From contig JAUFOR010000002.1 of assembly GCA_040285745.1 (NCBI GenBank), positions 248,001 through 312,000 on the forward strand: a DNA stretch of 64,000 bases, written 5' to 3'. The notes beneath the pieces are model-generated. The model had not been told where the DNA came from, ran no database searches, and saw only the letters and a program-made list of their open reading frames with translations. Positions 13,934 to 56,956 of this stretch are shown here, piece after piece (position 1 is the first letter of the stretch; each line of letters begins with the position of its first letter). The translations under genes and the position numbers were made by a program. The stretch comes from Barthelona sp. PCE. Its lineage: Eukaryota.

Positions 13934-15440
13934 TAGACTTTGCAATAACAAATTTAAATTTTCCGGTGAAAGAAACTCGCGATTAGCGAGTTGTCCAATC
14001 TTTACTAATAATAGTAAATATAAAGATGTTTACAAGTGAATTTACCAGTAGCGGAAAGAAATTTTCATTCAGTTCCATTTTTCCACCACATTCACGTTTT
14101 TCGCTTATCCTACAATTACATGATTGGTGTCAAACATAGCCAGATACGTGTACAGAGGGGAATTGATTGTTCAGGTTGCAAGCAAACCTAGATATTTTGA
14201 AAACACTTTGTATTTCACTATCCAGCACAGAAAAAGTACTGGAACAGATGCAACTGAGCGTTTCATCATCAACAACTGCTGTTTTGCAAGCAGGAAAAGC
14301 TTCACTTCCGAAAAATATGGAGTTTTTGCACATTCATCCTCATTTGAGTTATTCAACTCCCATGCTAAGGGCAAAAGTCGGGTTAAGATGGAAATAGGCA
14401 AATCACTGACCAAGAATCAAGCCCATATGGTTAGTCTTTTCATTTTCACGGTAAAACCCTATTCTGATCACATTCCATTGGCTGATCAAAGGTATGATGA
14501 TATATTCGTTCTGGAAACAGGATTTAAAACCGTATGCTGTTGAAGATCACTCATATGCACTTGTTACTGATGTAATACGTGTTGAAAGAGAATTAAGTTA
14601 TCAGTTTGGGCATCCTAGGTATTACAAAGGTTTAGGGCTCACATTATTTCACTTCTTTGTACTAATTTTTGTGCTGATTTTTTTTCTTGCAATTAAGAGC
14701 TTCAAAATTTGCAGGATGTGTTGAATGATAATCATATTCCTTCAAGATCCCCTTTAAAATCTCTAAATGAAGGAATTTTGGCTGAAATACTATCCCCTTT
14801 CGATATCCCATCACCTTATGCAAATGAACCGCCTGTTTCAGCCGCAAGATCATCATCATATGAGTTCAATTTTGATGATCAGAGTTTGCGTGAGAGGGAT
14901 ATTCGCTCAGCGCTGATTTATGGTTGCCAACATGAAGATGTGGTTGGTTTGAGTGTGATTCAAGAGATTGTCAACAAGTACAAGACGGTTCCTGCAAGCA
15001 ACGCATGTGTTGAGCGTGGATTTTCGGTGTTAAAGACTGCACATACATGCAAACAAAAAATGCTTGGCACCCAATTGCGATTTGACTGGTTTTTATACCA
15101 TGAAGTAGGTGCAGTTGCAGCACTAGCAATTGAGGATATTGAGAAAGCCATGAATATTGAAAGGGAAGCTGAATAAGTAATAAGAGGAAAACTTCATTGT
15201 TTCACAGAATAAGTATGATTGTTCACCTCATTGTTGACTGTTCTTGTTCGTTATGAGGTTTATTTAATAAAAGAGAAAAGATTGAAAATCCAAAGTTTGG
15301 CGAAATGCAAAATTTCTTTCCGCTACTGGTAAATTCACTTGTAAACATCTTTATATTTACTATTATTAGTAAAGATTGGACAACTCGCTAATCGCGAGTT
15401 TCTTTCACCGGAAAATTTAAATTTGTTATTGCAAAGTCTA
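13934..15440. mobile_element. Second hAT-superfamily element with 132-bp TIRs and 8-bp TSD ATGAAAAT
   Basis: 13934-14065 is the reverse complement of 15309-15440, ends TAGAC...GTCTA. ATGAAAAT sits at 13926-13933 and 15441-15448. Internal ORF has KTVPASNACVERGFS. Confidence 0.93.
14124..15176 (+). pseudogene. hAT transposase-derived ORF fragments with a probable intron at 14630-14697
   Basis: Removing GTTTAG...ACTAAT...TTAAG (68 nt) joins ORF 14494 in frame to ORF 14709-15176, which carries the hAT dimerisation motif. The upstream part needs a frameshift. Confidence 0.65.
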
Positions 15441-15468
15441 ATGAAAATCATTTTTTCTTCCCTTTCAA

Positions 15469-31200: not shown

Positions 31201-34200
31201 ATTGATCTGAACACATATCCATTCCCAAACAAGAACGATCCGAGTGCTAATCCTATTGCCATCATAATTCTTCAAGATTGTTTCTTGAAATTGTTGGATG
31301 ACATGTCATCTTCATCTAAACTCCTAAATTTTGTTCAAAACAAAGGTTCCGATAAGAAATTTAGATTTTTTATCATTTGCAATAATATTGATTTGTTTTC
31401 ACAACATTTAGTTCGCCACAATGACTATTTCGTTCAATTTTTTTATGATGACGTGTTCAGTTTCAGAGAACATGACTTAACTTTTGATGGAAGTAACTTT
31501 AATGATGCTGTTATGTTCAGTGGAGAGTCTCTTTTAAACCAGAATCTTGAATTTTTCAAGAATTTTGCTTTGGAGACAAAATCTGACCCTATCAAAATAA
31601 TGAGCCAGACGATACGAATATTCGAGCAAATGATAGAATTGAACGCTATTAATTGCACAAATCCATTGAAGATTACTGACTTTGTGCAATACTACTCCGA
31701 GAATGAATTTGATGACATGCCTTTTAAAAAATTTAAGTCGAAACTAGTTAACTTTTGGTCCACTCGTCTAACAAATAGCATGAATGGAATCAATGTTGAA
31801 GAAGATGACATGTTGTTTGCTAAAGAGATTAACAAAGTTTCATATAATTACGCTCATCAACAAGTTTTTAATCAGTTTAACAACCTTGGCCCAACAATTT
31901 TCTCACAGAATAGATTATTTTACCCTGCTGACAGGATGGTTGGATGTTGTGCTGCGACACCTGACATAATCACACATATTACGAGTGTTTATAAAGATCT
32001 CAAACAGTTTCTTACATTTATTATCACCTTTGAAGAATATCTTTTAAAATTAATTGATGAAAATGAAGAAAAAAGCGAAACTTTTGAGCTTGAAAAGTCT
32101 GTAATTCAACAAATAATTAATGAAAAGGTACTATGTGATCGGGCCAAGTCTAAAGATGTTTTTAACCAACTTGTTGGTCTTGAAGGACAATATTCAAAGG
32201 AAAAGAAGAAGCAACAGAAGATTATTGTCATTAGAAAGCAGCTGCAGCAGATCAAAGATACTTTTATCAAATTCATACCAATTATTGATTTGTCGATTGA
32301 AGAAATATCTATTATGACATTTTTGTTCGTTCTTTCTGAGTTCATAGTTTGCTCAACGTCGATATATGTCAATGTACATGACGTTTTGTACGAAAAACTG
32401 GAAAAAATCATAAAGTTTGATACAAGTTTCGATTTTTACAAGTGTATGGATGTTATTTTAGATATGTTAGTACCCATGACCAACAAACATCACTTTTATG
32501 CTGACTCTCACATCAAGCGTAAGGCATTTGCAATTTTCACATTTTCACAATTCTCACTGTTGTGCACTTACAACATTCCATCTGTCATCCTTGACACCAT
32601 CAAACACGTATACAGTTTTGATATTGTAGTTCTAAAGAACGGAAGTTTGCACGAAAACATGCGATTCATCTCTGAAGCTATGTATTTTGTTGAGTTGAAG
32701 AGCATTGATGATTGTGATTATTTCTTACCTCTAATCGAAGCGTTAATTGCGTGTAAGAACAACAGTATGTATAAGGAGGTTGTTTATAATGACAGAATTT
32801 TGAAGATTGCCCACGATACACGTGTGATTATTGTGATAAAGAACAGTAGTTTGGTCGACCAATTGAGCTCTCACTTTATACACTTCACAGAGTTCTTTTG
32901 CACTTTACCTATTACAACACATATACATAGTGTTCAGCATACTTTTATTGATTCTGAACCCATTAGTAAGTTCAGTTTTGTTGATCTTGTTCGTTTTTTC
33001 AATACTAATAAGCAATTCCTCAATTATGTTTATGAGACCAAGAAGGACCCTGCATGTTTAAATGTAATCAGTAGATTGCACAGAAAAATGATTGAGGCAG
33101 GAATGTTTTCAAACATAGTATCTAGTGACGTTGGTGATACAAGTATGTTCAACGCACTTGCAACATCTATTGTTGGCATCGCCCATAGTTTAGAACGAAT
33201 GCGAATCCAGTTTCTTCCAAACATGAGCTGTTTCAATACTAACACCATTGATGATCATCTGCTGATCACGAAAAAAATCTTAGCTGATGAAAAATTAGGT
33301 AGCGGATCGCTCACAACTACAACAGTATTCTCACGATTGTACCATTACATTTTGTGCCAATTCCTCTCAGTCCCTCATGATTTCCGTCTCCTGAGCTGCT
33401 TGTATTTTTGCTTACAGAATGCGCTGAGTGATGCTAGTTTCGATAATGGTCCTATCCTTGCATTGCTCAATGACGAATCAGTACAATGTGGAAGTCTTGA
33501 ATTTACTAGCTCTCTTAAAGATTTTCCGAGTTCCACTTATATCGGTTACAACAAACCTTGTATTTCAGCAATAATCAAATTATTTCATTATCTTGTGAGT
33601 GATGCACAATTGTTCAAGTATATACTTAACGAAAAAAGTACTGATTTAGTTACATCCCACCTTGTTGCGTTTATTCACGATAATTATGACTCATTTTTCA
33701 GGTATGACTCATTTGTATCAGTTATGAAATCCCGAAGCTGTGATCTTTTGGATAATTTCCACAATTACACCCATGAATATATTTTTTGGATAATAATATT
33801 GAGCCCATTGTCAAACCCACGTTATGTTTCACCATGTTCAAATGTGATCTTCGCATGGCTAACTGTTGAATATCTTCAAAAATCTGTGTCTCCTAATCTT
33901 TGTACGGCAATCTTCAGTGGTATCAGACCATCATTTGAAGTTGTTCTAAGATCTCTTGAAGAGGGATTTCTTGGCGAGATTGTCATTGCTGCCACCGATG
34001 GGTACAGTGTACCAACTTTCTCACTGATTATCCTGCTTCAGCTTAAAGAACAACGAGTATATATTGGTTTTCTGAGCGATTCATTCATGATGTTTGAACT
34101 GGATTGCTTTACTAAATATAGTCAAGTCATCATTCAAGTTACGTCCTTGGAGCAAATTGATCTTCTTTATACACTTTTGGAATACTACAATACACTTCCC

Positions 34201-35778
34201 ACAGGTAAAGCTAAGCTACTAATCACGATTCCGATGAACTGGTGTTTAAGTATTGCAAACACTGCCCTCAATGTATATCCTTTCTTATATCTAAACACAT
34301 ATTCAAATAGGGATTTTAGACAGTCTCACATAACATTCATGGAGTTGTCATGCTACATGGTAGAGTCTTTGGAAACTATCACAATTCCCATTTCAAGACT
34401 ACTACAGTGTCTGAGTTGCTTTTTCTTCATTGTAGTCACAAACTACACTTTTTGTGTTGGCATCAACTGGACTCATGTCATATCACTGGTACGGTATATA
34501 GTCGCATGCTTTGTTGAGCTCAATCCCCGGGTATCTAGTGTTCGTATTATGAGACATGTATCCACTGTGTGCAGTATTATATTTAAGATGTTCGAAAAGG
34601 TTCCTATCAACATGTGCTTTACGTTGTACAAACGCTGCATAGATTTTGCATTTGGTGCTCAACGTTTTTTTGTGAAAAACTGTCCTTTATTTAATATTAA
34701 AGACACAAACTTGCTGATTAATACACTTATGGAAAAACTTCCCTTCTTCGTATCACCAACATCAATGGACATCCTTAGTTCCTCTCCAAATGCTAACGAG
34801 GGTTGCTACATACCTGGACCATACCCAGTCATTAGCTCATTCTTTTCGTTACGGAACAGTCTGCAGTTGTGCAGTCAAAAAGGATACTTCATCCACCATG
34901 AACGATATTCTGATGTCACACTGTCGCCTCATAGTCTGTTCCATATGGTACGACAGTCTGTGATGAACCTCAACTTTATGTGCATGAAAAAATTCCTTGG
35001 TGATGAAAAAGTTTTTAAAAACGTTCCTGAAAAATCTTCTGCGCTGGTTTCATTCATTTCACGTACAACGGTTGCAAATAATATTATCAAAACACTCCCC
35101 ATGTGGGATAATAGTGTATTTTGTTTCTCTTTTGAAGATCTCCTTCAGTTCAAAGGTATGTACCGCGGTTTTCTAACCAGGTATTATGAAGTTCTCATGA
35201 ATCATAATATTCCTCAACAACAAACTCCAATTCCTCACAGTTTTGGAAGGTTTATTTCAAGTAACATGATTTTTAAACATGATTTGAACTTTGAACCTTT
35301 GAGTATTATGCTTTTTAGCACATCTTTCGATCAATTCAAATTCTTATCTTTCTTATTAAACTTTTTAAAGATCAAACAAGACAAGCAAAGCTCTACTATA
35401 GTTGAATACAAGCCATATTGTATGTTTTATTCAAGTTTGCTGTCTCCAATGCAGTTCCATGGTATTTCTCTCAACAGTAGCCACAAGTTTTCTCCAACAA
35501 CCAACCCTCAGAGATACAATTTCAAACTTGATTACAAATCAAACAGTTCACTTAATTCAGTGAGTGAAGTACCGCCATTTACGTTCTATCCTGTTGAACG
35601 AACTCTTCATAGTGACTTTACTCCACGCAAGGTGCATTCTATGACACTGCCTGTGAACCAAAACAATGCTATTGTGAAGTACGAATCCAGAGGAGCATTT
35701 TTCGAAAATTTCACAACAGAGAATCAGGTGATATCATTCCTACGCTGGATTTGTCATGAAATTTCAAAATCCTTGTAG
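22300..35778 (+). CDS. Giant 4492-aa protein, highly divergent dynein-heavy-chain-like, with a degenerate AAA1 P-loop
   Basis: Intact 13.5-kb ORF of dynein length. Degenerate equivalents of the dynein linker and AAA1 motifs fall in the expected order and spacing (see findings). Confidence 0.6.
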   Translation: MMPSQAIFKPFGDLSTISVDSELCGFFTAQTDLSGINTTPRLYLAEISEGHYMIVSDPTNLSILCTIFTLSFDNAPVSVFLQYSETSEHDILYTYEPNSLKLNHMNSLLKDFFFFSEFVNNEQTPYNEISLSLLLHNFRSLSAFSKHLIPLFIDGIDFHSSLVSYAFILVMSTTLYDVFFSIDSERLIGIDDDTIVEYLLLAKKFFFFQNTLKKKEFSDFLKYADSVQRIFITDGIFSFEKYKEAFSPERMKVFMLFFNVFHNSIFRIPFFFKFFIYGLTNCVVFLCKCIICNKLCDNDNQFLFSSLMCSFQHLAALPPIISNIRLFIDSCLGLLHKSSLEFQQMKHDKEFSLIHAGFLDKYISYVGEQYITFQSLTNRIVFLGKYIETFSLYASSTKYILAHSSGLLSILNFSYLYQVTENIKTLDVLFFSCPIKVLKKKLKVILNFMRRMEKCFVDGVEESIAPFNHLQKLRIVGGLVASGISKPLFLKSLFMNLVEKLISSFSFRQSYLFGDHNISNFSFRSYTSEFSKIIPCVMEYYRFTETFEFFQLFHNNTLINKDRFNTISHSYEKWFHRCNAFFNVIRTQIHQVIETIINVINTKAPIFDCGEHISNDLRQLLNLKFELLPMNTILITKSCINLTIFRNDNVEYSGAQQFILFYRRFHQFFSSFQQMIHNDISTFDSTVWKYVKTFFYDIWTDFQHFIRAQTWNHLPSAFQEIQKFVIPMNQFHIRIAEGFNTFIKIQLRFLRGKSFRGSTSLFTRQFDNVEDTFDHVKNLVLSEAPRLHAVFLESLEFIKDSMLRTKTLKIISLHFFLLRRLVIGLKMYYIQLFTALKNEIVEFQDKCNENMNNGLFKRSSLSYNYTDMCQSDISSVPYMLVRIVRVYLTFYQQFKKLCKEQLSLNSEVLKAMDNLLFEGELFACILTLYGSLERKMEYENTLLDAHRKEFDKIVLRKYNTDVSLEKNTELSFPSYSSFKKSAEHYFTISNLFAITEEELNIALEDIFRFLFNNVLQTSRTVADEILFDYVFLNFKLFVNCYQTFQSPSSLDTLLPSIFTINAFREINNSEKTVKLKDWLEKIEENDLLPIWFPFHDSMWFDEDVFERIIIQLYINHGSEKVSKSQFGKILSNLFIDMFSSSIQTSFSSIVYVCFKLIFVGHHNFYMQVSKFISDNIIVCSRFIEKHLFSHMKKAEKLRKKFFNAKMELRTVNRGIFLSSIREPVFEDTKLVSYVRSSFGYLVSILDQLRMCISDLCNYNILALEFINADFRCEEFITEFKTFATDNYNNIFNFLKRFNKFVSILHMPVFASETKDHIKHLSKLWSESKSTCSWRHQPNCPICSYINIFASFCVTLEEIIQLEPMEQTQELYLHHSICVLLDLKCQGSHLTCVKLFCIYFYDKAMLTETIEWFEKERALSNECHILEETLCSIHLPLYTISDKLYLLNPHHIFDFCKEFSSRAQVLNDEFLSFQSKVTSPILQSYIALNFNGTLLHRIYARVELLQRFIGSLILFKSIQDYIVMYYQYITATKFFMDYSIDPELFQQLQEEIDAWNRYIAKCIMTVHETFEIFHGSSQMHLEMFEINYLYILRSMNPKGTVTLMNILGKWDGFEYEQNFVMHKSFEEWSSDLSLYIEKCLSVIHPLSAQFKIIHLFRNRDALLIYSSLVYGLTLQKCLLSTYINQHFILGRFAPEIHHFKTSRNTINGCYNISGELLKFTKPVSDFVHFNVDNPQSSLSLHEKLLSNINDSMLDCYRSLSSIDVTNLHYHYISGDFKHIPSLLVFYKIFVYATNIFETVEQFINTDRTMFESIITEFIVLFQDLYENFVHSIFLHISTAVGQSDVYHCLRVIVFALLMQIEFAKLCIQADNDEDLEKVMQSGIFCYDCFAKNNSNIYIRPEISDLFTTTGECESIYVSCGRLVYVQSKLDFVPPFHSSHCFHTIPMAQDTRILKELCTCQSCDDFFLALSGNSITHQLSTLQFFSFIIGKRNIIMELRSDTSFINFCNSIVFALKSDCMLFITTFDNGFQQKHEQFLIELVHNLRKCIATNNHQVKVPTFPHIFDSKHVADDDPCHIQFSETSAIVFVTHPIHSITRYLPFSSTVRIIHWNASVDVFRTKLVFAFVGFETLDNICFILTQYIKSFRDIFNISLPLFFHQAISMLYVELHHAHSKNEDALYDRLQLLSSVLYFICKLFVNSTHYPMFHMDTTNGEFEKHTDINVFNTFHESFFKSIPIVDISIFSKIFPVFTPVHDSLKDLKHGVLYEIDVKIKEFLLSKFNIDFFFEHYVALIREMFLMSFFMPVLFFFVNNSCFNVETLNIIEELYSHYLPSATICFDIKDINDPDFPTNYMNKCDSMPLYLIMYDQMFFANRLSNSSGSLFSGSANNSVGTFVSASVTSGGRFSYLTRGYGQKPAVFLVESREPVETRLIQHKFIEKHDVHHINGDTYRGPIKLLPGIFINELSNLETNIKSLLNTMHMFFDNALSQEMYSKVERVLLDSLTVLNESSNAPVDGTVLRRIVFRNRIHLSLDTFFYFLCGVLTTFFKQRTSENNVLDLFFNNALMLALFVMLDQDFSIGVERIHALLNVHFEKSLTNIVLNSVIYEYYLSCSTGFFVSSTPICLEILAVEVNNMPLYDLFLINPCMLFIEWYLRCIFFGAEHAFGKYVHCELSIQSPLKPNSIIDLLLRKDQTSHPMYSLNISEVQKQHFLQDDFCFDENHILFVNSSSCQFSSLYRNRCIIIKIDKLLRKDYVTAFMTTILDKRYILQKSPITKHVISFFSYAIIQLYKASVKVGVDLLVHFFISLEKMLNSKLPNYNCLRIFHTCLVFELWNFPFRDDVIEDAIEHSPICLGDEFMICINIDVNSNFDDKSDRNNSVISLSDFSAYCERLGGIFKSLKNSNNNFPKELYRSLFAYEYGINKHPFVVVMTESENSSSLNSHSIVLLPILLHSLTILQYDRLVYDFSIDLNTYPFPNKNDPSANPIAIIILQDCFLKLLDDMSSSSKLLNFVQNKGSDKKFRFFIICNNIDLFSQHLVRHNDYFVQFFYDDVFSFREHDLTFDGSNFNDAVMFSGESLLNQNLEFFKNFALETKSDPIKIMSQTIRIFEQMIELNAINCTNPLKITDFVQYYSENEFDDMPFKKFKSKLVNFWSTRLTNSMNGINVEEDDMLFAKEINKVSYNYAHQQVFNQFNNLGPTIFSQNRLFYPADRMVGCCAATPDIITHITSVYKDLKQFLTFIITFEEYLLKLIDENEEKSETFELEKSVIQQIINEKVLCDRAKSKDVFNQLVGLEGQYSKEKKKQQKIIVIRKQLQQIKDTFIKFIPIIDLSIEEISIMTFLFVLSEFIVCSTSIYVNVHDVLYEKLEKIIKFDTSFDFYKCMDVILDMLVPMTNKHHFYADSHIKRKAFAIFTFSQFSLLCTYNIPSVILDTIKHVYSFDIVVLKNGSLHENMRFISEAMYFVELKSIDDCDYFLPLIEALIACKNNSMYKEVVYNDRILKIAHDTRVIIVIKNSSLVDQLSSHFIHFTEFFCTLPITTHIHSVQHTFIDSEPISKFSFVDLVRFFNTNKQFLNYVYETKKDPACLNVISRLHRKMIEAGMFSNIVSSDVGDTSMFNALATSIVGIAHSLERMRIQFLPNMSCFNTNTIDDHLLITKKILADEKLGSGSLTTTTVFSRLYHYILCQFLSVPHDFRLLSCLYFCLQNALSDASFDNGPILALLNDESVQCGSLEFTSSLKDFPSSTYIGYNKPCISAIIKLFHYLVSDAQLFKYILNEKSTDLVTSHLVAFIHDNYDSFFRYDSFVSVMKSRSCDLLDNFHNYTHEYIFWIIILSPLSNPRYVSPCSNVIFAWLTVEYLQKSVSPNLCTAIFSGIRPSFEVVLRSLEEGFLGEIVIAATDGYSVPTFSLIILLQLKEQRVYIGFLSDSFMMFELDCFTKYSQVIIQVTSLEQIDLLYTLLEYYNTLPTGKAKLLITIPMNWCLSIANTALNVYPFLYLNTYSNRDFRQSHITFMELSCYMVESLETITIPISRLLQCLSCFFFIVVTNYTFCVGINWTHVISLVRYIVACFVELNPRVSSVRIMRHVSTVCSIIFKMFEKVPINMCFTLYKRCIDFAFGAQRFFVKNCPLFNIKDTNLLINTLMEKLPFFVSPTSMDILSSSPNANEGCYIPGPYPVISSFFSLRNSLQLCSQKGYFIHHERYSDVTLSPHSLFHMVRQSVMNLNFMCMKKFLGDEKVFKNVPEKSSALVSFISRTTVANNIIKTLPMWDNSVFCFSFEDLLQFKGMYRGFLTRYYEVLMNHNIPQQQTPIPHSFGRFISSNMIFKHDLNFEPLSIMLFSTSFDQFKFLSFLLNFLKIKQDKQSSTIVEYKPYCMFYSSLLSPMQFHGISLNSSHKFSPTTNPQRYNFKLDYKSNSSLNSVSEVPPFTFYPVERTLHSDFTPRKVHSMTLPVNQNNAIVKYESRGAFFENFTTENQVISFLRWICHEISKSL

Positions 35779-44745: not shown

Positions 44746-46503
44746 ATGCCCCACGTTCATGAAGCAGAAGACATTGAGTTAACTCAAGAACAAATCGATC
44801 TCATTCCCGTTAGCACTCAACAAGCTATGAAGGAAAGAGGAATCGATATCAACAAGGCTTACGTACCTACAAAGACTAAGAGCTGGCTTCCTAAGAAACA
44901 CGTTTTCCCTTTCCCTGCTGGTGATTCAGTCGAAGCTGATAAGAAACTTGGCTTCATGCAAATCCTTGTCCCCATCTTTGCTATTCTGTTCCACATTTGC
45001 GTTGGTTCTGTCTACTCACTTAGTGTTTACAACAAACCCGTTGAGGAAATGAGACCCGACTTCTTGAAGGTTTCATACCTTTTCAGTATTGAAATTGCAC
45101 TCCTTGGTGCTCTTGGTGGTTTCTGGGGTACTCTTATTGAGAAACTAGGTTCTAAAGCTACTGGTTTCATTGCTGCTGTATTGTTCGGTTTGGGTAACGC
45201 TTTGTGCGGTGTGGGTTTAATGGTTGACTTACATTTCCTGTACATCTTAGGTGCCATCATTGCCGGTCTCGGTCTTGGTGCTGGTTACCTATCCCCCGTC
45301 AGTCCTCTTCTGAAATGGCACATGCGTAACCCTGGTTTGGGATCCGGCCTTGCTGTCGGTGGTTTCGGACTTGGTGCTTCCATCTCATCTCTTCTTGAGA
45401 ACTACTTCATTGGTGAATACGGTGTCGACAAGTGTTTCATCATCCTTGGTATCATCTTCTTTGTCGTCATGTTCTGTTCTTCTTTCTTCCTTTACGTTCC
45501 CCCTTACAAGGGCTGGGTCCGTGATAGGTTCCTTGATGAGAGCAAGATGTCTGAAGAAGATCAGAAGAAGAACACACAAAAGAAGTGCTGCACTGATCAG
45601 GATTGTGTTATTGGTCTTGGTGATGCTAAGTTCCTTCCCAGTGATGTCCAAATCGGTCTTAAGGATGGTCTGAAAACCCCTCAATTCGTCTTTATGTGGC
45701 TCATCCTCTTCATTAACATCTCTTGCGGTATTGGTGTTCTCTCTCAGTTATCTCCCATTGCTGAGGATATGTTTGCTATGACTGCTGACGAAGCCGCTGG
45801 TGTCGTCGCTTTCGCCTCCATCTTCAACTTACTTGGTCGTTTGGTCTGGGCTACTCTCTCCGATTACATTGGTACAAGAACTGTATATCTCCTTTACTCT
45901 GCTGGTGCTTCCATTATTTTCTTTGTCTTGCCTCTTCTCGCTGCTGCCAAGGCATCTTTTGTGTTCATGATTGTTATTGCTTTCGAATACTCATTCTATG
46001 GTGGTGGTTTCAGTACCATTCCTTCATTCTTGTTCCGTACTTTCGGTGCCAAGGCTGTTGCTGAGCTCCACGGTTATGTTCTTTCTAGCTGGGCCGTTGC
46101 TGCACTTGTTGCTCCCACTCTCGTTACGCTCTTGTCTGAATCCGCTTCTGATCTTCCTGCTGATGAGAAGTACAACACTGCTCTATTTATCTTTGCTTGC
46201 GCCCTGATTGTCGAGTTCATTCTCGCTGTTTTCTTCAAGCCTTTGACCACAAAGCAGTTCCCTCATCTTGGTCCCAAGGATGAAGAGTCCGAAGAGGAAG
46301 AGGAAGTTGTCGTTATTGAAGTTCCTGAAGATGAAGAAGTCGAAGAGACTGTCGAAGAAGCTGAAGAAGTTGTCGAAGAAGTCGAAGAGGCTGAAGAAGT
46401 TGTCGAAGAAGTCGAAGAGGCTGAAGAAGTTGTCGAAGAAGTCGAAGAGGCTGAAGAAGTTGTCGAAGAGGCTGAAGAAGCTGAAGAGGCTGAAGAATTC
46501 TAA
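44746..46503 (+). CDS. MFS transporter, oxalate:formate antiporter (OFA)-like, with a Glu-rich tail
   Basis: HICVGSVYSLSVY, GLGLGAGYLSPVSPLLKW, GLAVGGFGLG, FNLLGRLVWATLSDYIG and YGGGFSTIPSFL. Strong codon bias. Confidence 0.9.
   Translation: MPHVHEAEDIELTQEQIDLIPVSTQQAMKERGIDINKAYVPTKTKSWLPKKHVFPFPAGDSVEADKKLGFMQILVPIFAILFHICVGSVYSLSVYNKPVEEMRPDFLKVSYLFSIEIALLGALGGFWGTLIEKLGSKATGFIAAVLFGLGNALCGVGLMVDLHFLYILGAIIAGLGLGAGYLSPVSPLLKWHMRNPGLGSGLAVGGFGLGASISSLLENYFIGEYGVDKCFIILGIIFFVVMFCSSFFLYVPPYKGWVRDRFLDESKMSEEDQKKNTQKKCCTDQDCVIGLGDAKFLPSDVQIGLKDGLKTPQFVFMWLILFINISCGIGVLSQLSPIAEDMFAMTADEAAGVVAFASIFNLLGRLVWATLSDYIGTRTVYLLYSAGASIIFFVLPLLAAAKASFVFMIVIAFEYSFYGGGFSTIPSFLFRTFGAKAVAELHGYVLSSWAVAALVAPTLVTLLSESASDLPADEKYNTALFIFACALIVEFILAVFFKPLTTKQFPHLGPKDEESEEEEEVVVIEVPEDEEVEETVEEAEEVVEEVEEAEEVVEEVEEAEEVVEEVEEAEEVVEEAEEAEEAEEF
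46351..46470 (+). repeat. Coding minisatellite, four 30-bp units encoding VEEAEEVVEE
   Basis: GTCGAAGA(A/G)GCTGAAGAAGTTGTCGAAGA(A/G) repeated four times. Confidence 0.9.
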
Positions 46504-46593: not shown

Positions 46594-48519
46594 ATGTCAC
46601 ACCATACATCTGCGGTTCCCAGGAACTTAATTTTAGAACCATTTCATGAAAGAAGAATTGTGAGTTGCAATGATGAGACCCTTAACACTCAGTCTATCAG
46701 TTTCATTGATGCAAACATGGAATCAATGATTAGAGGTCCAATTGTTGATGGGTCAAATGCTGTGGGCAAGAAAATCGGTATGCTCAAACCTACCTTGTTG
46801 GAACCCACAATATTTTATCGTTGTTTACACGAAGAAGGGTCTTTCTCCATTGTTGAGCTGTTTGAATTCAGTGACGGGGCTTTTATACTTCTTCAAAGAA
46901 ATAATTTACCCTTCAAGTTTAACTATGATTTAGATAGTTTGCTTGATAGAAGATTCGTAATTCAACGAGTTGACGAAATACATATGAAAACTTCTTATGA
47001 TATTTATATATATGATCTAAACCAAGATTCAAAAATTATCTTTTCAACTTCTTTTCAAAAACAATCATTTTGGACAGTTGTACAAGTTGGTGTTGCTTTT
47101 ATTACGACAGGACACCACTCTGTAGTAATTGATTACAGTATAATATCTTTCTCACGTGAGGGATTTCCTCATCTAATTAGGTACAGCCCATTACAGAGAG
47201 TTAAATTATGTGCTTATGATCGCTCACCAAACACACATCAGTTCATAGTTGATGAAGACTATCACTTTCTAACATACTCAGTCCAGTATAGTGCTCTAAT
47301 CAGCACACCGTTTACGACAAATAAGTATTTGCCAAAGTTGAGAAAGGTGAAGGAGTTTATACCGCTTTTTGATGTATTTATTCCACATCCCGATGCCTAT
47401 ATACGACATCCAACTGTGTATAACAATCTATGGGACTTTGTGTTGTTGAACGGAAAAACATATAGTACTGCGTATGATTCCTCCACTGGTATTTCCAATT
47501 TCTATAGAGTAACCAAGCAGACCCACAAATGCATGTTTGTTTTGGATGTCGATTCAGAGTACTTCCCACAAGTAAGAAAAGATAATAGTTCATTTGGGCG
47601 TTTTCCTATCGTGTGCGATTTTTACAACAATTCAATCATTTTTCTGCATACATCAAAGGATTTCCATCATGAAATCCTACGCAATTCACATAGATTTTAT
47701 GATTTTGATAGTAACCAATGGAGAACTGGTTTTGTCACTGAAAAATTCAGAGATTGTAATTTTTATCTTGACGGAATAGCATTAGCAACATTAGAAAGGC
47801 CTGAACATGCAAAAATTATTGAATTTTCATTCAATAATATTCATCAAGCAATTTCTTTTAAAAAAAGAAGCTTAGATTGGCAATCAACCGGAAGTCAGTA
47901 CCTTTTGTTGATTAACGGAAATCAAAATTTGATCAATTCTCATATTTCTCATCTTCATATAATTGGAAATTTCGTATATTTTGTCTCCGAGCATCGTTTC
48001 CTTACTGTTCAAATGCTGGATGATAAAGGTGAAATTTTGCAGACCAAGGAGTATACCTGTAATGAGAATATCAGAGAGGTGATCTGCAATCCATACTGTG
48101 GAACTGAGATTATTATAAATCAAAATTTTGTCATGCGATACGAAATTGAAAATGATGAATTTTGTTGCATCAAAATTGACGATAGTTGTAGCGATCCCAT
48201 TTTTATTGATGAAGGCGTCATTATTTCAGATAAAACTGCTTATATGTTGGGTATTGATGGTATTAGAACGTTTGAAATACCAGAAATTGAGGGATTTTTA
48301 TATTCACCAACTAGAGGGATTTTGGTTGGATGTACAACCGTTATTAACCACAATTTTACGATGAAAACCTTACAATTCGATAGCAGTAATGCTGAATTTG
48401 CTGTTGAAACTAGGGATGTGAGTGTAATTGATTTTTTCACTCAATGTGAGATTTCCTCCACTTTCTCTTCCTTTGGTGAATTTCCACACACACCAAAAGA
48501 GAAATTCTTGCCTTTTTAA
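46594..48519 (+). CDS. Hypothetical beta-rich protein of a lineage-specific family, paralogue of 37953-39809
   Basis: 641-aa ORF with CNPY and the C-terminal DVSVIDFFTQCEI. Confidence 0.65.
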   Translation: MSHHTSAVPRNLILEPFHERRIVSCNDETLNTQSISFIDANMESMIRGPIVDGSNAVGKKIGMLKPTLLEPTIFYRCLHEEGSFSIVELFEFSDGAFILLQRNNLPFKFNYDLDSLLDRRFVIQRVDEIHMKTSYDIYIYDLNQDSKIIFSTSFQKQSFWTVVQVGVAFITTGHHSVVIDYSIISFSREGFPHLIRYSPLQRVKLCAYDRSPNTHQFIVDEDYHFLTYSVQYSALISTPFTTNKYLPKLRKVKEFIPLFDVFIPHPDAYIRHPTVYNNLWDFVLLNGKTYSTAYDSSTGISNFYRVTKQTHKCMFVLDVDSEYFPQVRKDNSSFGRFPIVCDFYNNSIIFLHTSKDFHHEILRNSHRFYDFDSNQWRTGFVTEKFRDCNFYLDGIALATLERPEHAKIIEFSFNNIHQAISFKKRSLDWQSTGSQYLLLINGNQNLINSHISHLHIIGNFVYFVSEHRFLTVQMLDDKGEILQTKEYTCNENIREVICNPYCGTEIIINQNFVMRYEIENDEFCCIKIDDSCSDPIFIDEGVIISDKTAYMLGIDGIRTFEIPEIEGFLYSPTRGILVGCTTVINHNFTMKTLQFDSSNAEFAVETRDVSVIDFFTQCEISSTFSSFGEFPHTPKEKFLPF

Positions 48520-48995
48520 CCATGTTTTGTACGGTAACGTTCGAATAGGAAGTTCCTTTTTGAAATAATAAGAATTCATAATTCTATTATCGTATAAGTG
48601 CATTAAATGAACAAATATACATACAATAAAGTACTTTACATTGGAATACTCCATAATTTCCTTTAAAAAAAGAATTTTTTTGAAAAACAGAATTTTGAAC
48701 TTTCTTTAAACTGAGCAATATTAACCTTCAAAGCATCTTTACTGTAGCTAATCAGTGTCTTTTATGTACTTAACTCTGATGTCTAACATGACCCACCCTG
48801 GCTATGTGTAGGTACTAGGAAAAATAATACGACCAACATAACTATTGGTAATTTGAATTTCTCAATATAAAAAATTAATTAAGACTAATTTGTAAATTAT
48901 TGTGGTTTGATATAAGATTTAAAACCCAAAATATTGGAGAACATATGCATTTACACGAAAACTTGTAGAGAGTTTTTTTTTTTCAATGTTTAATA

Positions 48996-49419
48996 GTGTA
49001 ATCAGTGATTTTCTTCCCGAGTATCTTGCATGTTAAGGGTAGTTAACAAATTATTTACAAATATTTAAGTTCGATATTGTGTCGCGTATCTTCATAGTTT
49101 GGAAGTCCACACATCCATCATCGTTTGTTTGAAGTGTGTGGCTTCACTAGCTCTTGAACACCCTCCTCACGTATTTTCCCGCGTGTAACTCGTATCTTGT
49201 ATCCGTTACATATCCAACTTCCACTGAGAAGTCTGGAGGCAAAACAGGTTGTGCGATTTCATGTTTCTTAACGGCTGTTGATTCGTTTATAGCTTTCGTG
49301 AGCTGTTCTATGTGCTCACACAATTGCCCGCATTGAATTGATAAATTCCCTGAATGGGATTCATCATCAACGACCGAACCTTTTCGGTTCTTGTTGGTGT
49401 CATTTTTCTTCTTATAACT
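48996..49419. repeat. 424-bp direct repeat, copy 1 (C-terminal coding region plus 3' UTR)
   Basis: Matches 50558-50981 except for 2 synonymous substitutions. Confidence 0.95.
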
Positions 49420-50424
49420 GCCTCTCTGCTTGTTCTTAACACTGCTGTTGCCATTAAATCTACGTCTTTGTCTTGGCTTCTGTTCATACTTGTTCTCAAG
49501 GGTAAACAAACCAGTCTCAAAACCTAAATTACGCAGAGTAACATCTAACGTCGTGTCATTCTTGTCCTTAATTACACCTCCTATTCCTGCAAAAAGGTGG
49601 AAGAGTTGTTGCCACTTATCACTATCAATCTTTCCTTCAACGACTTGTTCAATAAACCACTGGCACAATTGGAAAGTAGACATCTTCCCTGCTACGATAG
49701 CCAGTCTCTCACGGTGTCCAGAATCCATAACTAACTTCTGTTCAGTGTGTAATTTTGAAATAACCTTCTCCGCCGAACTGAACTCGCCACGGTATTCGTT
49801 TTCCCCAAAGTATTCATCCATCAACACCTCATAAGTATCAGTTGATACCAAACCAAAATTGTTATTGAGTAAATTCATGTCACCTCTTGGGTATTTTGGT
49901 TCTTTGAGCATGGGCTGTAAGTACACCGTATGGTTACCATTGCTGCTGTTAACGACAGTAGCTGTCATGTTCTGGATTGTCAACATTGTAACTAGATCTT
50001 GTTCACTCGGCTCTCGATACTCCATCGTTTGTCCTGATTGAGTATTCAACAACGCTCCTAGATTAGTTGCCATCACCTGGGCCTCATATACTGCTCCTTC
50101 CACTAAAATCTCTTCTGTTTCATCAACAAATGAACAATTTTTCTTGTAATACTCGAATACTTTAGCAATTCCTAGTTTCCCAACTACATCAGTCATAACT
50201 TCACCGTTAAATACGCTTGAAAATACTGCTCTCAAGCATGACGAAAAATAAATATTGCGCACTTCTTCTGTGACCAAACTCTGTATCGTATGTTTGTCAC
50301 CAGCGGCTATGATTGCTGCATCATGCCTTGTCATCTCGTTAGTGACCTTAAATTTTTGAAATTGTTCACTATCAATAGCTGTTCTAAACTGCTCAGCTGT
50401 CATCGTCTCTACTATTGTTGCCAT
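49147..50424 (-). CDS. Orphan protein, cassette A (425 aa), possibly of mobile-element or viral origin
   Basis: Intact ORF, homologous to 50709-51977, with an identical C-terminal ~90 aa. Confidence 0.8.
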   Translation of the reverse strand: MATIVETMTAEQFRTAIDSEQFQKFKVTNEMTRHDAAIIAAGDKHTIQSLVTEEVRNIYFSSCLRAVFSSVFNGEVMTDVVGKLGIAKVFEYYKKNCSFVDETEEILVEGAVYEAQVMATNLGALLNTQSGQTMEYREPSEQDLVTMLTIQNMTATVVNSSNGNHTVYLQPMLKEPKYPRGDMNLLNNNFGLVSTDTYEVLMDEYFGENEYRGEFSSAEKVISKLHTEQKLVMDSGHRERLAIVAGKMSTFQLCQWFIEQVVEGKIDSDKWQQLFHLFAGIGGVIKDKNDTTLDVTLRNLGFETGLFTLENKYEQKPRQRRRFNGNSSVKNKQRGSYKKKNDTNKNRKGSVVDDESHSGNLSIQCGQLCEHIEQLTKAINESTAVKKHEIAQPVLPPDFSVEVGYVTDTRYELHAGKYVRRVFKS

Positions 50425-50557
50425 TGTATTTCTGTACTAGTATACTTAGTAAAATAAAAAGGAAACCTTAAAATGGTAAGAAAAAATACACCCGCATACG
50501 TCTATTCCATTCTCTGTTCAAAATCAATTACAGGATCGTCCTGATCAGGGCTAATTG

Positions 50558-50981
50558 GTGTAATCAGTGATTTTCTTCCCGAGTATCTTGCATGTTAAGG
50601 GTAGTTAACAAATTATTTACAAATATTTAAGTTCGATATTGTGTCGCGTATCTTCATAGTTTGGAAGTCCACACATCCATCATCGTTTGTTTGAAGTGTG
50701 TGGCTTCACTAGCTCTTGAACACCCTCCTCACGTATTTTCCCGCGTGTAACTCGTATCTTGTATCCGTTACATATCCAACTTCCACTGAGAAGTCTGGAG
50801 GTAAAACAGGTTGCGCGATTTCATGTTTCTTAACGGCTGTTGATTCGTTTATAGCTTTCGTGAGCTGTTCTATGTGCTCACACAATTGCCCGCATTGAAT
50901 TGATAAATTCCCTGAATGGGATTCATCATCAACGACCGAACCTTTTCGGTTCTTGTTGGTGTCATTTTTCTTCTTATAACT
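50558..50981. repeat. 424-bp direct repeat, copy 2
   Basis: Offset 1562 bp from copy 1, with sharp boundaries on both sides. Confidence 0.95.
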
Positions 50982-51977
50982 ACTCTTACGAATGCTCTTC
51001 TTACGGTAGTTCCTGTACGACTGTTCTTGTTTAGGTAAATGCCTTTCACTTTCGACACGCATCGTAAAACCCAATTTTGTGAGGAGAGTATTCAGGATTT
51101 CCGTTCCGCCTCTTGGGTCTTTCCATACACCTTCAATTCCTGAAAATGTGTGAAACACATCATCTAGCCTTTCCATAGGGAGTCCATGGTCCAACACCTG
51201 ATTTGTCAACCATTTGGACAGGCCAAATGCAGACATCTTACCCACTATAACAGCCATCTTAATCACTTGATCACTTGTGAGTTTCTTAACACCAGCATCA
51301 ACATCTAATTTGGATATAGCTCTAGCTGCCGTGTTCAGCAGATTTGCTGAGAAAGGAGCATCCTTCATGCCTAGTTCCATCAGTCTGTCATACTCAGACT
51401 CCTCGACCATTCCAAAATCATTATTCAACCTAAGAAATTCATGTTTGGTCAATCTAGGTCTCTCTCGTTGGATCACAATTTCTCGCTTTCCAGCCTGTTT
51501 CTCTTGATTAACAAGACCCTCATATAAGTTCATCATGACGTTGATGTCATTTCTATTGGCTGTTCTGTAACATACGCTCTGCCCGTCACATTCTAACCTA
51601 ACTCTCATGCTCATTATAGATTTCACAAAGAAGCACTGAGGACAATCTTTCGTCTCCTCATCATCACTGTTTACGAAACAAGATACGCTCAGAAAATCCA
51701 TTAACTCTCCAAGACTCACTTTGGTGACCATCTCATCACACTTACCCTTACCTATTAAGCCCGATAGCAGGGATCTCAAGCAAGCTGACCAAAAAATATT
51801 GCGCGTTAATTCTGTAGTAAAAATCGCATACGAATGGGACTCAACTTCTTCTGTTACCATGTCATCTTGGAATGACGTGCTCACATTGTACCTAAACTTA
51901 CGGGAAACTTTTTCATTAACAAATCTTACATATTCCTCTACTGTTGCTTTAGTGACTGTTGTGGTTGTGATTGGCAT
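50709..51977 (-). CDS. Orphan protein, cassette B (422 aa)
   Basis: Intact ORF with a divergent N-terminal ~330 aa and the same C-terminus as cassette A. Confidence 0.8.
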   Translation of the reverse strand: MPITTTTVTKATVEEYVRFVNEKVSRKFRYNVSTSFQDDMVTEEVESHSYAIFTTELTRNIFWSACLRSLLSGLIGKGKCDEMVTKVSLGELMDFLSVSCFVNSDDEETKDCPQCFFVKSIMSMRVRLECDGQSVCYRTANRNDINVMMNLYEGLVNQEKQAGKREIVIQRERPRLTKHEFLRLNNDFGMVEESEYDRLMELGMKDAPFSANLLNTAARAISKLDVDAGVKKLTSDQVIKMAVIVGKMSAFGLSKWLTNQVLDHGLPMERLDDVFHTFSGIEGVWKDPRGGTEILNTLLTKLGFTMRVESERHLPKQEQSYRNYRKKSIRKSSYKKKNDTNKNRKGSVVDDESHSGNLSIQCGQLCEHIEQLTKAINESTAVKKHEIAQPVLPPDFSVEVGYVTDTRYELHAGKYVRRVFKS

Positions 51978-52162
51978 GTGTTAAATAAACAGGAAACCCC
52001 AAAATGGATAGAAAATGAAATACACATTCTATGTTCAAAATAACTTTCATTCATTCTGATCGCCAACATTATACACTTTCAAGGTTAAAAATGTATTTTG
52101 CCAATAAAAGTGCTGAGTATAAAAATATTTCTCAACAAAAACACATTTACAAATCAGTTGCA

Positions 52163-54553
52163 TCACTTCTTTGCTCTCATTTCGAGTCTCCTCTTGGCAC
52201 TTTGGAACTCATGGTCGTTCTTCTTGGCTATTTTTTGAATTTGAGCATTAGCTTGAGCACGTTCAACAGCAAAAATCTTTTGGAGTCGTTTTCTCTCCGT
52301 TTCATCAGTTGTGTTGTTTAAAATATCATCTCTCTCCTCATCTCTTGTCTTCTCAGTGTTGAGCAAAGCAAGTAAACGCTCATTTTGACGTTGACGCAAT
52401 AGTTCAAGTTCAAGTTCACTCTCCACTTTAGCATGTCTTGATCCCTGACGTGGATCAGCAAAATAAGGTGATTTTGTGTCAAGTACTGAATGAGCACGGG
52501 AACGACGACGCTTCTTCTTACGGGTTGGTGAACTCTTCTCAGTATCATATGAACGATTTTCTAAGGAGCTTTGCGACCTCATTTCATTGGTTTGGCGAGG
52601 TGGGCGTGGCTTCCGTTTCTTGTCACTGGATATTGGAGTCGAACGTGTCTTGGTACGAGGTTTGTGTGTTGACCTTGCTTCAGGCCTGTGCTTCTGAGTA
52701 GATGTCTCAATTGCAGATGCACGTTTCTTGGGTTCAGGTAACCTATTGCGGCGTGCAGGGCTCTGTTGCTTCTCTGCACGAGGTTTTCTGGGTTCTGAAA
52801 GGCGAGAGAGTGTGCGTGCTCGCTCTTGTCGATCACGTTTAACAGGGGTACGCTTTTGAGGTGTCTTATTGGTCTCAAGCATCGCCATGGATGATACAGG
52901 TCTGTTAGGCATGTCAACTTCAATGTTTGCAAGTTCTGGTGGCAACTCCCACTTCTTTGTCCTACGCATCTTTTCGATTGCACTCTGGAGCTGCTTTCTT
53001 TGCTGGACAGTCTCCTGTTGCAACTTCTTACGCTCTTGTGCAATTTTCTTCTTCTCACGTTTCATGACGTCAACGCGTTGCATCTTACTCTCAATTTCCT
53101 TCTGTAATTGAGATCTTCGTGCCATATCACGCTTCTTCATACGCTTTACCTTCTCTGAGCGATCAATTTGCTTGAGCTTCTCGTTGACAAATTGCAGACG
53201 ACGTTCCTTCTCCAGTTCTTCTCGGTGCTCAGTTGTAGCACGGTCTTTAGCCTGTCTCTTTGCAATGATACGCTCCTTCTTTGTTTCCAATTCTTCCTGT
53301 ACACGATCATATACCTGTTTACGTTTCATTTCAGCTTCTTCAAGTTCTTGATGAATTTGCTTCTCACGTTCTTTCTTTTCACGTTCAATACGTTCAAGGC
53401 GATGATTATCTGCTTCAAGCTTTGCGTAAATACGGTTCCTACGCTGCTGTTCGAGCTCTTCTTGATGCTTTTGATGTAATTCAATTTCGCGAGCCTTAGC
53501 TTCACTCTTCTTATGCTGCTCTTCCAGATCCTTCTTTCTTTGCTCTTCAAAACGATGATGACGTTCCATGTTTTCACGCTGACGGGCAGCATATTCCATT
53601 TCAACCTTCAATCGTTTCTCTTCCTGGAATTCCCTGGCTTGTTCAACTTTACGCTGATTTTTTTCCATTTTTTCTTTGAGTTCGCGTGCCTTTTCTTTAC
53701 GCTGCTCCTCAAGGATAGCTTTGCGCTCCTCGTCGCGCTGTTGGAGCTCTGCTAAACGTTGTTGAGCCATGCGCTGTTGTTCATCCATAATCATTTGAGT
53801 TCGTTGTCTGAATTCTTCTTGGGCCTTGAGTCTTTCCTCCTCCTTCTTCATCTGTTCGAGACGCTGCTTCTTACGTTCTTTCTCCTGCTTCTGCCTGCGA
53901 ACTTGTTGTGCTTGAAATTCACGCTCAATAGCCAGCCGCTTCTCTTCTTCCTCCAGCTCCATTCTTCTTTTGCGCTCAAGATCACGCTTGAATCGCTGCT
54001 CCTCTGCCAGTTTCCTCTTCTTTGAGAGTTCTTCCTTGCGTTGACGCTCACGCTCCTCTTGACGACGCAGTCTCATTTGCTGATCCTCAAACATCTGTGC
54101 TCGTTTCATCTCGTATTCAAGCTGGCGCTGGATTTCAGCCTTTTGCCTCCTCTTAAGGGCCTCAAGGCGTTTCTTTTCAAGCTCAATTGCCGTTGTCAAA
54201 TTTGAATCATCAACTTCGGCATGGAATTCCTTGGTATCAAATTGACCTTTATGTGTGAGGGTGATATTCTCTCCCATGCCTAATATATCCGTATAGCACG
54301 CACGTGCAATCTCAATCAGCTCGTGACGTTTGCTTTCATGATGTTCAAAAATGATGTCGAGTTCATCATCGACCATTCCAACCTCGCGATATGATTCTTT
54401 TGACTCGCTGATGAGCTGTCGAGGTGAAATGCCCTCACGAAAACAAGCCTCTATACTACGCGGACTTGTAAGAATAGGTAAGACTTTGTCTGTATCATTG
54501 AAGTTCAATAACGTGATAATTTCCTTACTTTTTTGTTTGCTAGGTGATTGCAT
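52163..54553 (-). CDS. Charged coiled-coil protein (E/K/R/Q-rich), possibly cytoskeletal or flagellar
   Basis: 796-aa ORF with N-terminal LTSPRSIEACFREGI and long charged helices. Confidence 0.7.
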   Translation of the reverse strand: MQSPSKQKSKEIITLLNFNDTDKVLPILTSPRSIEACFREGISPRQLISESKESYREVGMVDDELDIIFEHHESKRHELIEIARACYTDILGMGENITLTHKGQFDTKEFHAEVDDSNLTTAIELEKKRLEALKRRQKAEIQRQLEYEMKRAQMFEDQQMRLRRQEERERQRKEELSKKRKLAEEQRFKRDLERKRRMELEEEEKRLAIEREFQAQQVRRQKQEKERKKQRLEQMKKEEERLKAQEEFRQRTQMIMDEQQRMAQQRLAELQQRDEERKAILEEQRKEKARELKEKMEKNQRKVEQAREFQEEKRLKVEMEYAARQRENMERHHRFEEQRKKDLEEQHKKSEAKAREIELHQKHQEELEQQRRNRIYAKLEADNHRLERIEREKKEREKQIHQELEEAEMKRKQVYDRVQEELETKKERIIAKRQAKDRATTEHREELEKERRLQFVNEKLKQIDRSEKVKRMKKRDMARRSQLQKEIESKMQRVDVMKREKKKIAQERKKLQQETVQQRKQLQSAIEKMRRTKKWELPPELANIEVDMPNRPVSSMAMLETNKTPQKRTPVKRDRQERARTLSRLSEPRKPRAEKQQSPARRNRLPEPKKRASAIETSTQKHRPEARSTHKPRTKTRSTPISSDKKRKPRPPRQTNEMRSQSSLENRSYDTEKSSPTRKKKRRRSRAHSVLDTKSPYFADPRQGSRHAKVESELELELLRQRQNERLLALLNTEKTRDEERDDILNNTTDETERKRLQKIFAVERAQANAQIQKIAKKNDHEFQSAKRRLEMRAKK

Positions 54554-55897: not shown

Positions 55898-56956
55898 ATG
55901 CGAGACATGAGAGTGAAATTCCCGAGAGATCCTGTTTTTAGATCGACAAATGAGATTATTCAATTGGCAGACACAAATTTTGAGGAGCATCGTGAATGCT
56001 ACACGCCTCTATTATCTAGTCATTTTGAGATATCATATTCTCAGTCAAAACCAGACTTTCAATTCGATGTTAGAGCTGCAGTTGATGGATTATGGGGAAA
56101 TGGTACATGGGTACAACCTAAACCACCGTATGATCCGTTTTTGGTCCCAGAATCAGAGCTATTCCTAGATATACCATTAATTGAAAACGTTGAACCAAGT
56201 CATGAATATTATTGTTTAATGAACAAATATCCAGCTTGTCCACGTCATTTTCTTTTGTTAACCAGTGATTTTATGCCTCAATTTCTGCCCCCGAACGAGG
56301 TGGAGCTACGTATGCTTCATGCATTCACAAGACATCCTGAGTACGTTGGATTCATTAATATAGGATGTGAAAGCGGTGCTTCCCAACCTCATCGACATTT
56401 TCAATTGATCAATACGGAAGTGTTCGGTAACATTGAGCACGTACCCATAGACATGGCACTACGCACATGGGATAGAGAGTTAGTACAAGGTTCTGTTGAG
56501 AAATGCACTGAATTACAATTTTTACATTGTTTTGTAGATATTCGTGATATGTCTATTGATGATATCATAACAAACTACCACATTATGATGGATAGTGTGG
56601 GCCTTCCATCCACATGGGATGCCTATAACGAGATTATCACCCCACCAAATATTGAGCATACATGGTTGAACTACAACTTCAAGATATATAAATACGTCAA
56701 TGTTCCTAGCTATAACTTCATCATGACGGGCGAGTTTATGTTGGTTGTTCCTAGAACTAGCGCTAAATCAAGTGTTTGTCCAATGAACTCGTTACCTTTT
56801 TTAGGCTCATTTTTCACTAGAGACAGGGAACAGAACGAGGCTATGAGGTTCCGCGTTGCTTCTGAGTTGCTGGCGGAGGGCTGCCCAAAGGATCTTGATT
56901 CATATCAAGCACCGGCTATTGAGTTCAATAATGTTGAAATGGTTGCTGTGTGTTAG
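55898..56956 (+). CDS. Ap4A phosphorylase / ATP adenylyltransferase (APA1/2 family)
   Basis: DPFL, LMNKYPACPRHFLL, NIGCESGASQPHRHFQ, SYNFIMTGEFMLVVPR and NSLPFLG. Confidence 0.88.
   Translation: MRDMRVKFPRDPVFRSTNEIIQLADTNFEEHRECYTPLLSSHFEISYSQSKPDFQFDVRAAVDGLWGNGTWVQPKPPYDPFLVPESELFLDIPLIENVEPSHEYYCLMNKYPACPRHFLLLTSDFMPQFLPPNEVELRMLHAFTRHPEYVGFINIGCESGASQPHRHFQLINTEVFGNIEHVPIDMALRTWDRELVQGSVEKCTELQFLHCFVDIRDMSIDDIITNYHIMMDSVGLPSTWDAYNEIITPPNIEHTWLNYNFKIYKYVNVPSYNFIMTGEFMLVVPRTSAKSSVCPMNSLPFLGSFFTRDREQNEAMRFRVASELLAEGCPKDLDSYQAPAIEFNNVEMVAVC

Follow-up and report, generated by a model that had tools for sequence, protein, structure and literature searches.

Insertion of RNA-virus genes through retroelements has been proposed for other protists (PMC10235124), with dinoRNAV-type elements as a case in which retroelements of the host probably made the insertion. 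In the RNA pair of a nepovirus the first 60-70 nt are almost identical and the 3' untranslated regions are 97.4-99.7% identical within an isolate (PMC12157320). Here we describe a locus of the flagellate Barthelona sp. PCE in which two head-to-tail genes, A (49147-50424, minus strand, 425 aa) and B (50709-51977, minus strand, 422 aa), are diverged over most of their length and end in one near-identical block of 424 bp. The locus lies in a 64-kb stretch of gene-dense, intron-poor eukaryotic DNA (contig JAUFOR010000002.1, positions 248,001 to 312,000), which was analyzed as a whole and is called the window below. We consider the locus a real feature. Insertion of a dimer of two RNAs is the most likely of the readings that we weighed, and gene conversion between host genes is a close rival.

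The shared block covers positions 48996-49419 and 50558-50981 (offset of 1562) and comprises 90 codons, the stop codon and 151 non-coding bases. Its two copies are 99.5% identical, the two mismatches (49240/50802 and 49252/50814) being both silent and in third position, and no further copy was found in the window. Beyond the block the in-register identity is 14-42% per 50 bp. The bodies, that is the first ~335 residues, are 25% identical in a global alignment and are homologous (27% over 303 residues, E = 1e-28); of 322 aligned codons, 37% have the same base in third position. The silence of both mismatches was considered as a sign of selection and rejected because 51% of the possible changes in the block alter a residue (P = 0.24). 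On the minus strand the features of the array follow each other in this order:

51978..52061, minus strand: leader of unit B, begins GATCAG and aligns to the A leader
50982..51977, minus strand: 332-codon body of gene B, for the most part helical by prediction, without membrane segment, basic patch at its end
50558..50981, minus strand: shared block, B copy, with 90 codons, stop TAG and 151 nt non-coding; 2 mismatches to the A copy
50546..50557, minus strand: last 12 nt of unit B, which form the junction; 7/13 ungapped matches to the bases past the A block
50425..50546, minus strand: leader of unit A, begins GATCAG
49420..50424, minus strand: 335-codon body of gene A, a homologue of the B body
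48996..49419, minus strand: shared block, A copy; the tail begins with basic residues and has a short heptad repeat (Ile at a, Leu at d) as well as predicted beta hairpins
48984..48995, minus strand: last 12 nt of unit A, containing ATTAAA
48973..48983, minus strand: A11 run, poly(A)-like, which closes the array; longest of 3 A/T runs of at least 9 bases in the 64-kb window

The first-pass annotation of this DNA had reported two genes of these lengths with distantly homologous bodies, joined in frame to a block of 90 codons and about 150 bp of 3' sequence with two silent differences. Both open reading frames (ORFs) are indeed present and the peptide motifs that it quoted stand in the alignment of the bodies. 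Its argument that a simple tandem duplication cannot explain old 5' divergence together with new 3' identity also stands. Because the block breaks off sharply at both ends within homology that is older, it is well supported that its near-identity results from a tract recently copied between two 3' regions that were already similar. A near-identical tract, two sharp ends and a homologous register are the marks of partial gene conversion between tandem paralogues, and the block has all three. The last copying of the 424-bp tract could have taken place either in RNA before insertion or by gene conversion after it.

The array consists of unit B (52061-50546, 1516 nt) followed by unit A (50546-48984, 1563 nt) and A11. 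Both units have the same anatomy, with a conserved leader, one ORF, the shared block and a 12-nt end. The leaders are identical in 71 of 84 aligned columns, start codon included, with gaps of 17 and 21 nt. Their similarity starts at GATCAG (52061 in B and 50546 in A), about 20 nt beyond the upstream motifs that had been quoted earlier on the plus strand and that occur exactly at both genes. The alignment of the upstream regions scores 81.5, as compared with 31.5 +/- 4.9 for shuffled sequences (0/2000 reach the observed score) and with a maximum of 43 upstream of 17 other genes. The 25-nt upstream motif has two matches against 0.00 expected, and the 17-nt motif, with 3 mismatches allowed, has three against 2.99 expected. 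For the outer 20 nt of the leaders the score was equalled in 10 of 1500 intergenic controls. Since the leaders are identical at 71/84 positions while the third positions of the bodies match at only 37%, the leader appears to be conserved for function. A partitivirus 5' motif, considered as a candidate, found no support in the literature searched and was dropped.

At the other end, each unit continues for 12 nt beyond the block and ends in TG, followed by A, with 7/13 ungapped matches, a level reached by 28/1500 controls. The A that follows the TG of unit A, 12 nt past its block and just beyond the positions given in the first-pass annotation, is the first base of the A11 run, and the final GA of unit B doubles as the start of the GATCAG of unit A. 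RNA folding of the leaders and 3' ends gave z values from -1.74 to +0.93, the hairpin after the stop being weak (z -1.7), and the two Rfam matches were both far under the gathering score. The 33 nt after the block of B also fold into a hairpin. This hairpin and the order block, A body, block would fit a 1562-bp circle (leader, A body and block) that entered the B block through a single crossover, or blocks acting as long terminal repeats (LTRs) around the A body. LTRs have TG...CA termini, and a nonanucleotide marks the replication hairpin of CRESS (circular, Rep-encoding, single-stranded) DNA. The block, however, runs AGTTA...TACAC, its outer flanks differ (AGAGT and TATTA), B is fused in frame with no repeat upstream, the hairpin carries no CRESS-type nonanucleotide (the sole pattern match is inside the A body, at 50154) and most of the 33 nt align with the leader of B itself. 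We consequently regard a circle or LTR origin as highly unlikely.

Relatives of A and B were sought in a database of 5.8 billion clustered proteins with 1.84 billion representatives. It holds annotated proteins only, so that masked or unannotated copies are missed. The family comprises four annotated proteins of two body types: A, B, P0008 (KAL0230054.1, 339 aa, B-type) and P0009 (KAL0231936.1, 214 aa, A-type), the last two being named Barthelona sp. PCE and located on other contigs, of 2,170,504 and 688,707 bp respectively. They may be paralogues of the same genome or copies from a close relative. With A as query only A and B were recovered among proteins of 233-744 aa, and with B as query none of 232 candidates of 30-231 aa was a relative. 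A two-body profile run against the 1.84 billion representatives returned three proteins (A, P0008 and P0009) and a profile built on all four sequences recovered, among proteins of 117-604 aa, these four family members and no others. In three protein searches, no third body carrying the tail was found among annotated proteins of 30-744 aa. Scans of viral contigs, metagenome contigs and prokaryotic genomes gave no relative either.

The two relatives bear on the history of the tail. P0008 matches B at 268/284 residues in the core, 12/20 at the N-terminus, 13/24 before the tail and 7/11 in the tail, and then stops at a position that is a CGA codon in the window. Identity between B and P0008 is thus 94% for the core but 58% for the ends (P = 5e-11), which indicates that the copies diverged under selection. 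P0009 matches A at 108/144 residues of the N-terminus, lacks most of the middle, and matches again at 17/18 residues before the tail and 4/5 in it. It ends in RHRK, of which RH is what the window tail encodes after a loss of 2 nt (one of 16 distinct products of 1-2 nt losses). Both proteins start the tail at the same codon as A and B, so that the in-frame switch described in the first-pass annotation is at a fixed codon; the tail has diverged in both and then ends early. If the tails were only as similar as the bodies (25%), the matches of 7/11 and 4/5 would have chances of P = 0.008 and P = 0.016, and at 35% both would be near 0.05; the region is Lys-rich, which makes these values soft. The 7/11 of P0008 is no better than its preceding 13/24 (P = 0.72), and this tail and the 4/5 of P0009 are both short for assigning a donor. 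Since the tail has the same first codon in a B-type and in an A-type relative, it is a property of both gene types. From the sequences we infer that both types bore it before the present copies were made alike, and that only the near-identity is recent. The 79 tail codons past the stop of P0008 are open in just 103/20000 shuffles, indicating that the tail is real coding sequence.

These observations also bear on two further explanations. An artefact of assembly or polishing, in which one tail was overwritten by the other, could arise at a repeat as short and nearly exact as this one. It is very improbable, as two sites distinguish the copies, both junctions keep the frame and lie at the codon with which the tail of independent relatives also begins, and homology continues past the block. 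The first-pass annotation had favored a cassette system in which variable bodies are joined by recombination to a constant tail, and the fixed, in-frame switch point is what such a system would give. The annotation behind P0008 and P0009 was moreover made after repeat masking (PMC11316075), and masked or unannotated copies would be invisible to protein calls. Against cassettes, there are only two body types with no third tail protein among those of 30-744 aa, the tail has diverged in P0008 and P0009, each gene has its own leader so that neither is a silent cassette, and hydropathy gives no signal peptide or membrane anchor. The linked reverse transcriptase, integrase or recombinase genes that had been envisaged are absent among the 31 ORFs of the window that were scanned with Pfam. 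A programmed cassette system with many bodies is therefore the least probable of the explanations considered here. A block present in these two copies alone had been named beforehand as the outcome that would speak against cassettes: among annotated proteins of 30-744 aa this is what was found.

The leader, the A run, the overlap at the junction, the shortened dispersed copies and the lack of relatives together point to polyadenylated RNAs and one template switch. We therefore tentatively prefer the reading that A and B derive from two polyadenylated RNAs of a so far undescribed segmented virus or satellite, reverse-transcribed into the genome as a dimer, with 3' parts homogenized by recombination. 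A retro-inserted or virus-derived origin, already raised in the first-pass annotation, is plausible. In such a scheme an undescribed RNA virus, or a selfish RNA, of the protist lineage would have had A and B as two polyadenylated segments or as satellite-like RNAs. Their leaders and 3' parts would bear replication or packaging signals kept alike by recombination. Recombination at the 3' end would carry along the last 90 codons and so give two divergent structural proteins one common C-terminal domain. Priming on the poly(A) of A, a host reverse transcriptase would then have read this RNA up to its 5' end, switched at the GA overlap to the B RNA at its 3' end and read that in turn, leaving B-A-A11.

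Several observations were counted for this RNA origin. A11 stands exactly at the end of the array, where a poly(A) remnant marking insertion from RNA would lie, and both units start with GATCAG and overlap at the junction. Termini like those of segments from one virus, as in the nepovirus RNA pair, are seen in the leaders (71/84) and in the block (422/424), with just 7/13 in the last 12 nt. Shortened relatives of each type (P0008 and P0009) are dispersed, none of the 1.84 billion representatives added a relative beyond the four proteins, and the codons of both genes fit the host poorly (0.007 in B and 0.028 in A, as compared with 0.021-0.147 in 24 neighbours).

Other observations weigh against it. 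The codon fit is lowest for B, while one host gene falls under A, and the dinucleotide ratios of A and B are mostly inside the host range. The A run is found in unit A only, and a run of 11 may have arisen by chance. The units do not agree in their last 12 nt, and a conversion tract with two ends accounts for this better than a common terminus does. The unit boundaries were picked post hoc, after inspection, which makes the control values given above optimistic. At the array junctions no 6-mer or longer word is shared within ~120 nt on each side, so that no target-site duplication was detected. In A and B the stop codon overlaps AGTGAA, which nearly matches AGTRAAY, the polyadenylation consensus of Giardia (PMC1805757); several host genes show the like, and this fits host transcription. 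No polymerase partner is known for A and B, an in-frame coding tail common to two virus segments was not found in the literature, and no virus protein was matched in sequence or structure (Pfam, PHROGs, PDB, viral contigs and a fold search with models of low predicted local distance difference test, pLDDT).

Much of the same evidence suits host genes. A and B may be lineage-specific host paralogues from an old tandem duplication whose 3' parts underwent repeated gene conversion that the bodies escaped, the leader then being a shared promoter and the A run chance; we rate this possible, if less likely than the RNA dimer. The two sharp ends of the block inside older homology, the start of the tail at the same codon in P0008 (7/11) and P0009 (4/5) as repeated conversion predicts, the two intact ORFs, the stop overlapping a Giardia-like signal and the lack of a detected target-site duplication all speak for it. 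Yet a promoter rarely keeps 71/84 bases while third positions saturate, and the copied tract includes 151 nt of non-coding sequence, although many gaps between ORFs are here shorter than 200 nt. Host paralogues also sit poorly with the poly(A)-like run that closes the array, the low codon fit, the shortened copies on other contigs and the lack of any relative beyond four proteins. Motifs of the Giardia type may be used by this host: AGTAAA or TGTAAA stands at or just past the stop in about half of the window genes (12/25 near the stop and 6/25 further out, a weak enrichment), and could possibly be a Giardia-like polyadenylation signal.

The proteins themselves were analyzed for signs of their origin. 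In both A and B a 30-residue window with a net charge of +11 lies around the switch point, and the tail combines a short heptad repeat with predicted hairpins. By hydropathy there is no signal peptide or membrane segment, the top 19-residue values being 0.99 for A and 1.25 for B and the N-termini not hydrophobic. Searches of Pfam, PHROGs and PDB sequences with the A and B proteins were blank or at noise level, and no ORF1p or Gag family matched in Pfam at E <= 10. Predicted models reached a mean pLDDT of 31.7 with two sequences and 43.2 with four, and a Foldseek search with the latter (pLDDT 43) had no hit at E <= 0.001 among viral or PDB structures. The best VIA-align hit (Z 5.5) places a pilin-like helix and hairpins on the tail (root-mean-square deviation 5.2, 74 aligned), which is under typical background. 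All Atlas scores were at or below 0.85; the PNMA cluster scored 0.82, a noise level that shuffled proteins often reach. A Gag or nucleocapsid identity of A and B, which the first-pass annotation had listed among its options, is in our hands neither supported nor excluded. On account of their size, helicity and basic patch we would guess that the two proteins are capsid or nucleocapsid proteins.

A retroelement origin was weighed on the same data. A and B could represent two subfamilies of a non-autonomous, non-LTR retroelement with a Gag/ORF1-like gene only, as in HAL1, which shares its 3' end with an autonomous partner, is recognized there by the reverse transcriptase of that partner, and formed the dimer by template switching or self-insertion. 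The A run, the shared 3' end, the decayed dispersed copies and the head-to-tail array would all follow, the heptad repeat and basic patch are in keeping with it, and HAL1 itself encodes only ORF1p (PMC5753468). The Atlas score for the PNMA cluster points the same way, but shuffled proteins often score as high. However, profiles of ORF1p and Gag gave no match, no target-site duplication was seen, only four annotated copies are known, the stop is followed by a weak hairpin (z -1.7), and no autonomous partner sharing the 3' end of A and B was found within the window. Taken together, a HAL1-like element is rather unlikely.

The RNA-dimer reading has a bolder form. The locus might be a fossil left by a segmented RNA virus or satellite, so far undescribed, of free-living metamonads, in which two segments encoded deeply diverged paralogous proteins with one identical C-terminal domain, because recombination kept a 3' module of 90 codons and untranslated signals common to them. 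These proteins would represent a new structural family. We hold this form to be doubtful. Were it true, the common tail could let the A and B proteins co-assemble.

The host genes flanking the array lie at 46594-48519 and 52163-54553. A Pfam scan of 31 ORFs identified, among the neighbours in the window, alpha-tubulin, an axonemal dynein light chain, PACRG, a subunit of the minichromosome maintenance (MCM) complex and lysyl-tRNA synthetase, and no tRNA gene was found within the 64 kb. Seven of ten window proteins were located in the protein database, each as a single-member cluster and all on one contig of 2,128,580 bp. A decayed DNA transposon of 1545 bp occupies positions 2239-3783, with terminal inverted repeats of 131 nt (99% identical) and an exact 8-bp flanking duplication, TTTTCCAT. 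Its transposase-like frames are broken, have no Pfam match and end in the motif PAGNAGVERAFS, which we take to be hAT-like. A class IV aminotransferase gene (3793-4860, minus strand) ends 9 nt from it. A second decayed element of similar size (~13907-15467) has inverted arms of 159 nt (92%), one of which extends to the start of the MCM gene (15469), and a C-terminal motif is common to both elements (tblastx 48% over 31 residues, E 1e-5). An ORF of 852 aa (7071-9629, minus strand) carries a complete YqeC domain (E 4e-35). The YqeC family is bacterial and tied to selenium-dependent hydroxylases, and lateral transfer of this ORF is possible. Also present, all on the plus strand, are an uninterrupted ORF of 4492 aa (22300-35778) with no Pfam match over the cut-off, a tandem repeat (46332-46496) that encodes the Glu-rich C-terminal tail of a major facilitator superfamily (MFS) transporter, and a gene for Ap4A phosphorylase (55898-56956).

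The literature that we surveyed on Barthelona, on endogenous viral elements of metamonads and on segments with identical C-termini, which included few subscription papers, holds nothing on this locus or layout and no described virus for this branch of eukaryotes. The word "viral" is absent from the main text of PMC11316075. If A and B are RNA-derived, the leader and the 424-bp block are ready probes for a virus or selfish RNA of this branch, and the in-frame shared tail is an unusual route to two proteins with one domain. If host paralogues underwent partial gene conversion, the locus is a tidy but ordinary case. Under either reading the protein family, with its four known members, is uncharacterized.

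Among described systems, the endogenous dinoRNAV elements of Symbiodiniaceae resemble A and B in being single ORFs dispersed in a protist genome, some of them incomplete (PMC10235124). They were recognized by their homology to known viruses, which A and B lack, and the part of that report that we could draw on mentions no dimer of two paralogous units with a common tail. In beet ringspot virus, a bipartite nepovirus, RNA1 and RNA2 have near-identical 5' starts and 3' regions as A and B do (PMC12157320), a likeness of architecture only. The part common to the nepovirus RNAs is untranslated, whereas the A and B units are 1.5 kb long, paralogous and share 90 codons in frame. Nepovirus RNAs also encode large polyproteins, including the polymerase. 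A sharing of 3' ends between tobravirus RNAs was considered as a further parallel, but found no support in the paper text consulted. HAL1 (half-L1) has, like A and B, one ORF, no enzyme of its own and a poly(A) end (PMC5753468), but A and B show no ORF1p homology, no target-site duplication and no partner element within the window, and their copy number is very low. The variant-specific surface proteins (VSPs) of Giardia and the variant surface glycoproteins (VSGs) of trypanosomes likewise combine a variable N-terminal part with a conserved C-terminal part and 3' end. A and B differ from these in having no signal peptide or membrane anchor, no large family and one leader per gene. Partial conversion between tandem paralogues produces the same near-identical tract with sharp ends in diverged surroundings, but on its own leaves the conserved leader, the A run and the shortened dispersed copies unexplained. 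The ingredients of the locus, namely retro-inserted virus genes, shared segment ends and partial conversion, are known; what is new is that they come together with a domain shared in frame within an orphan family.

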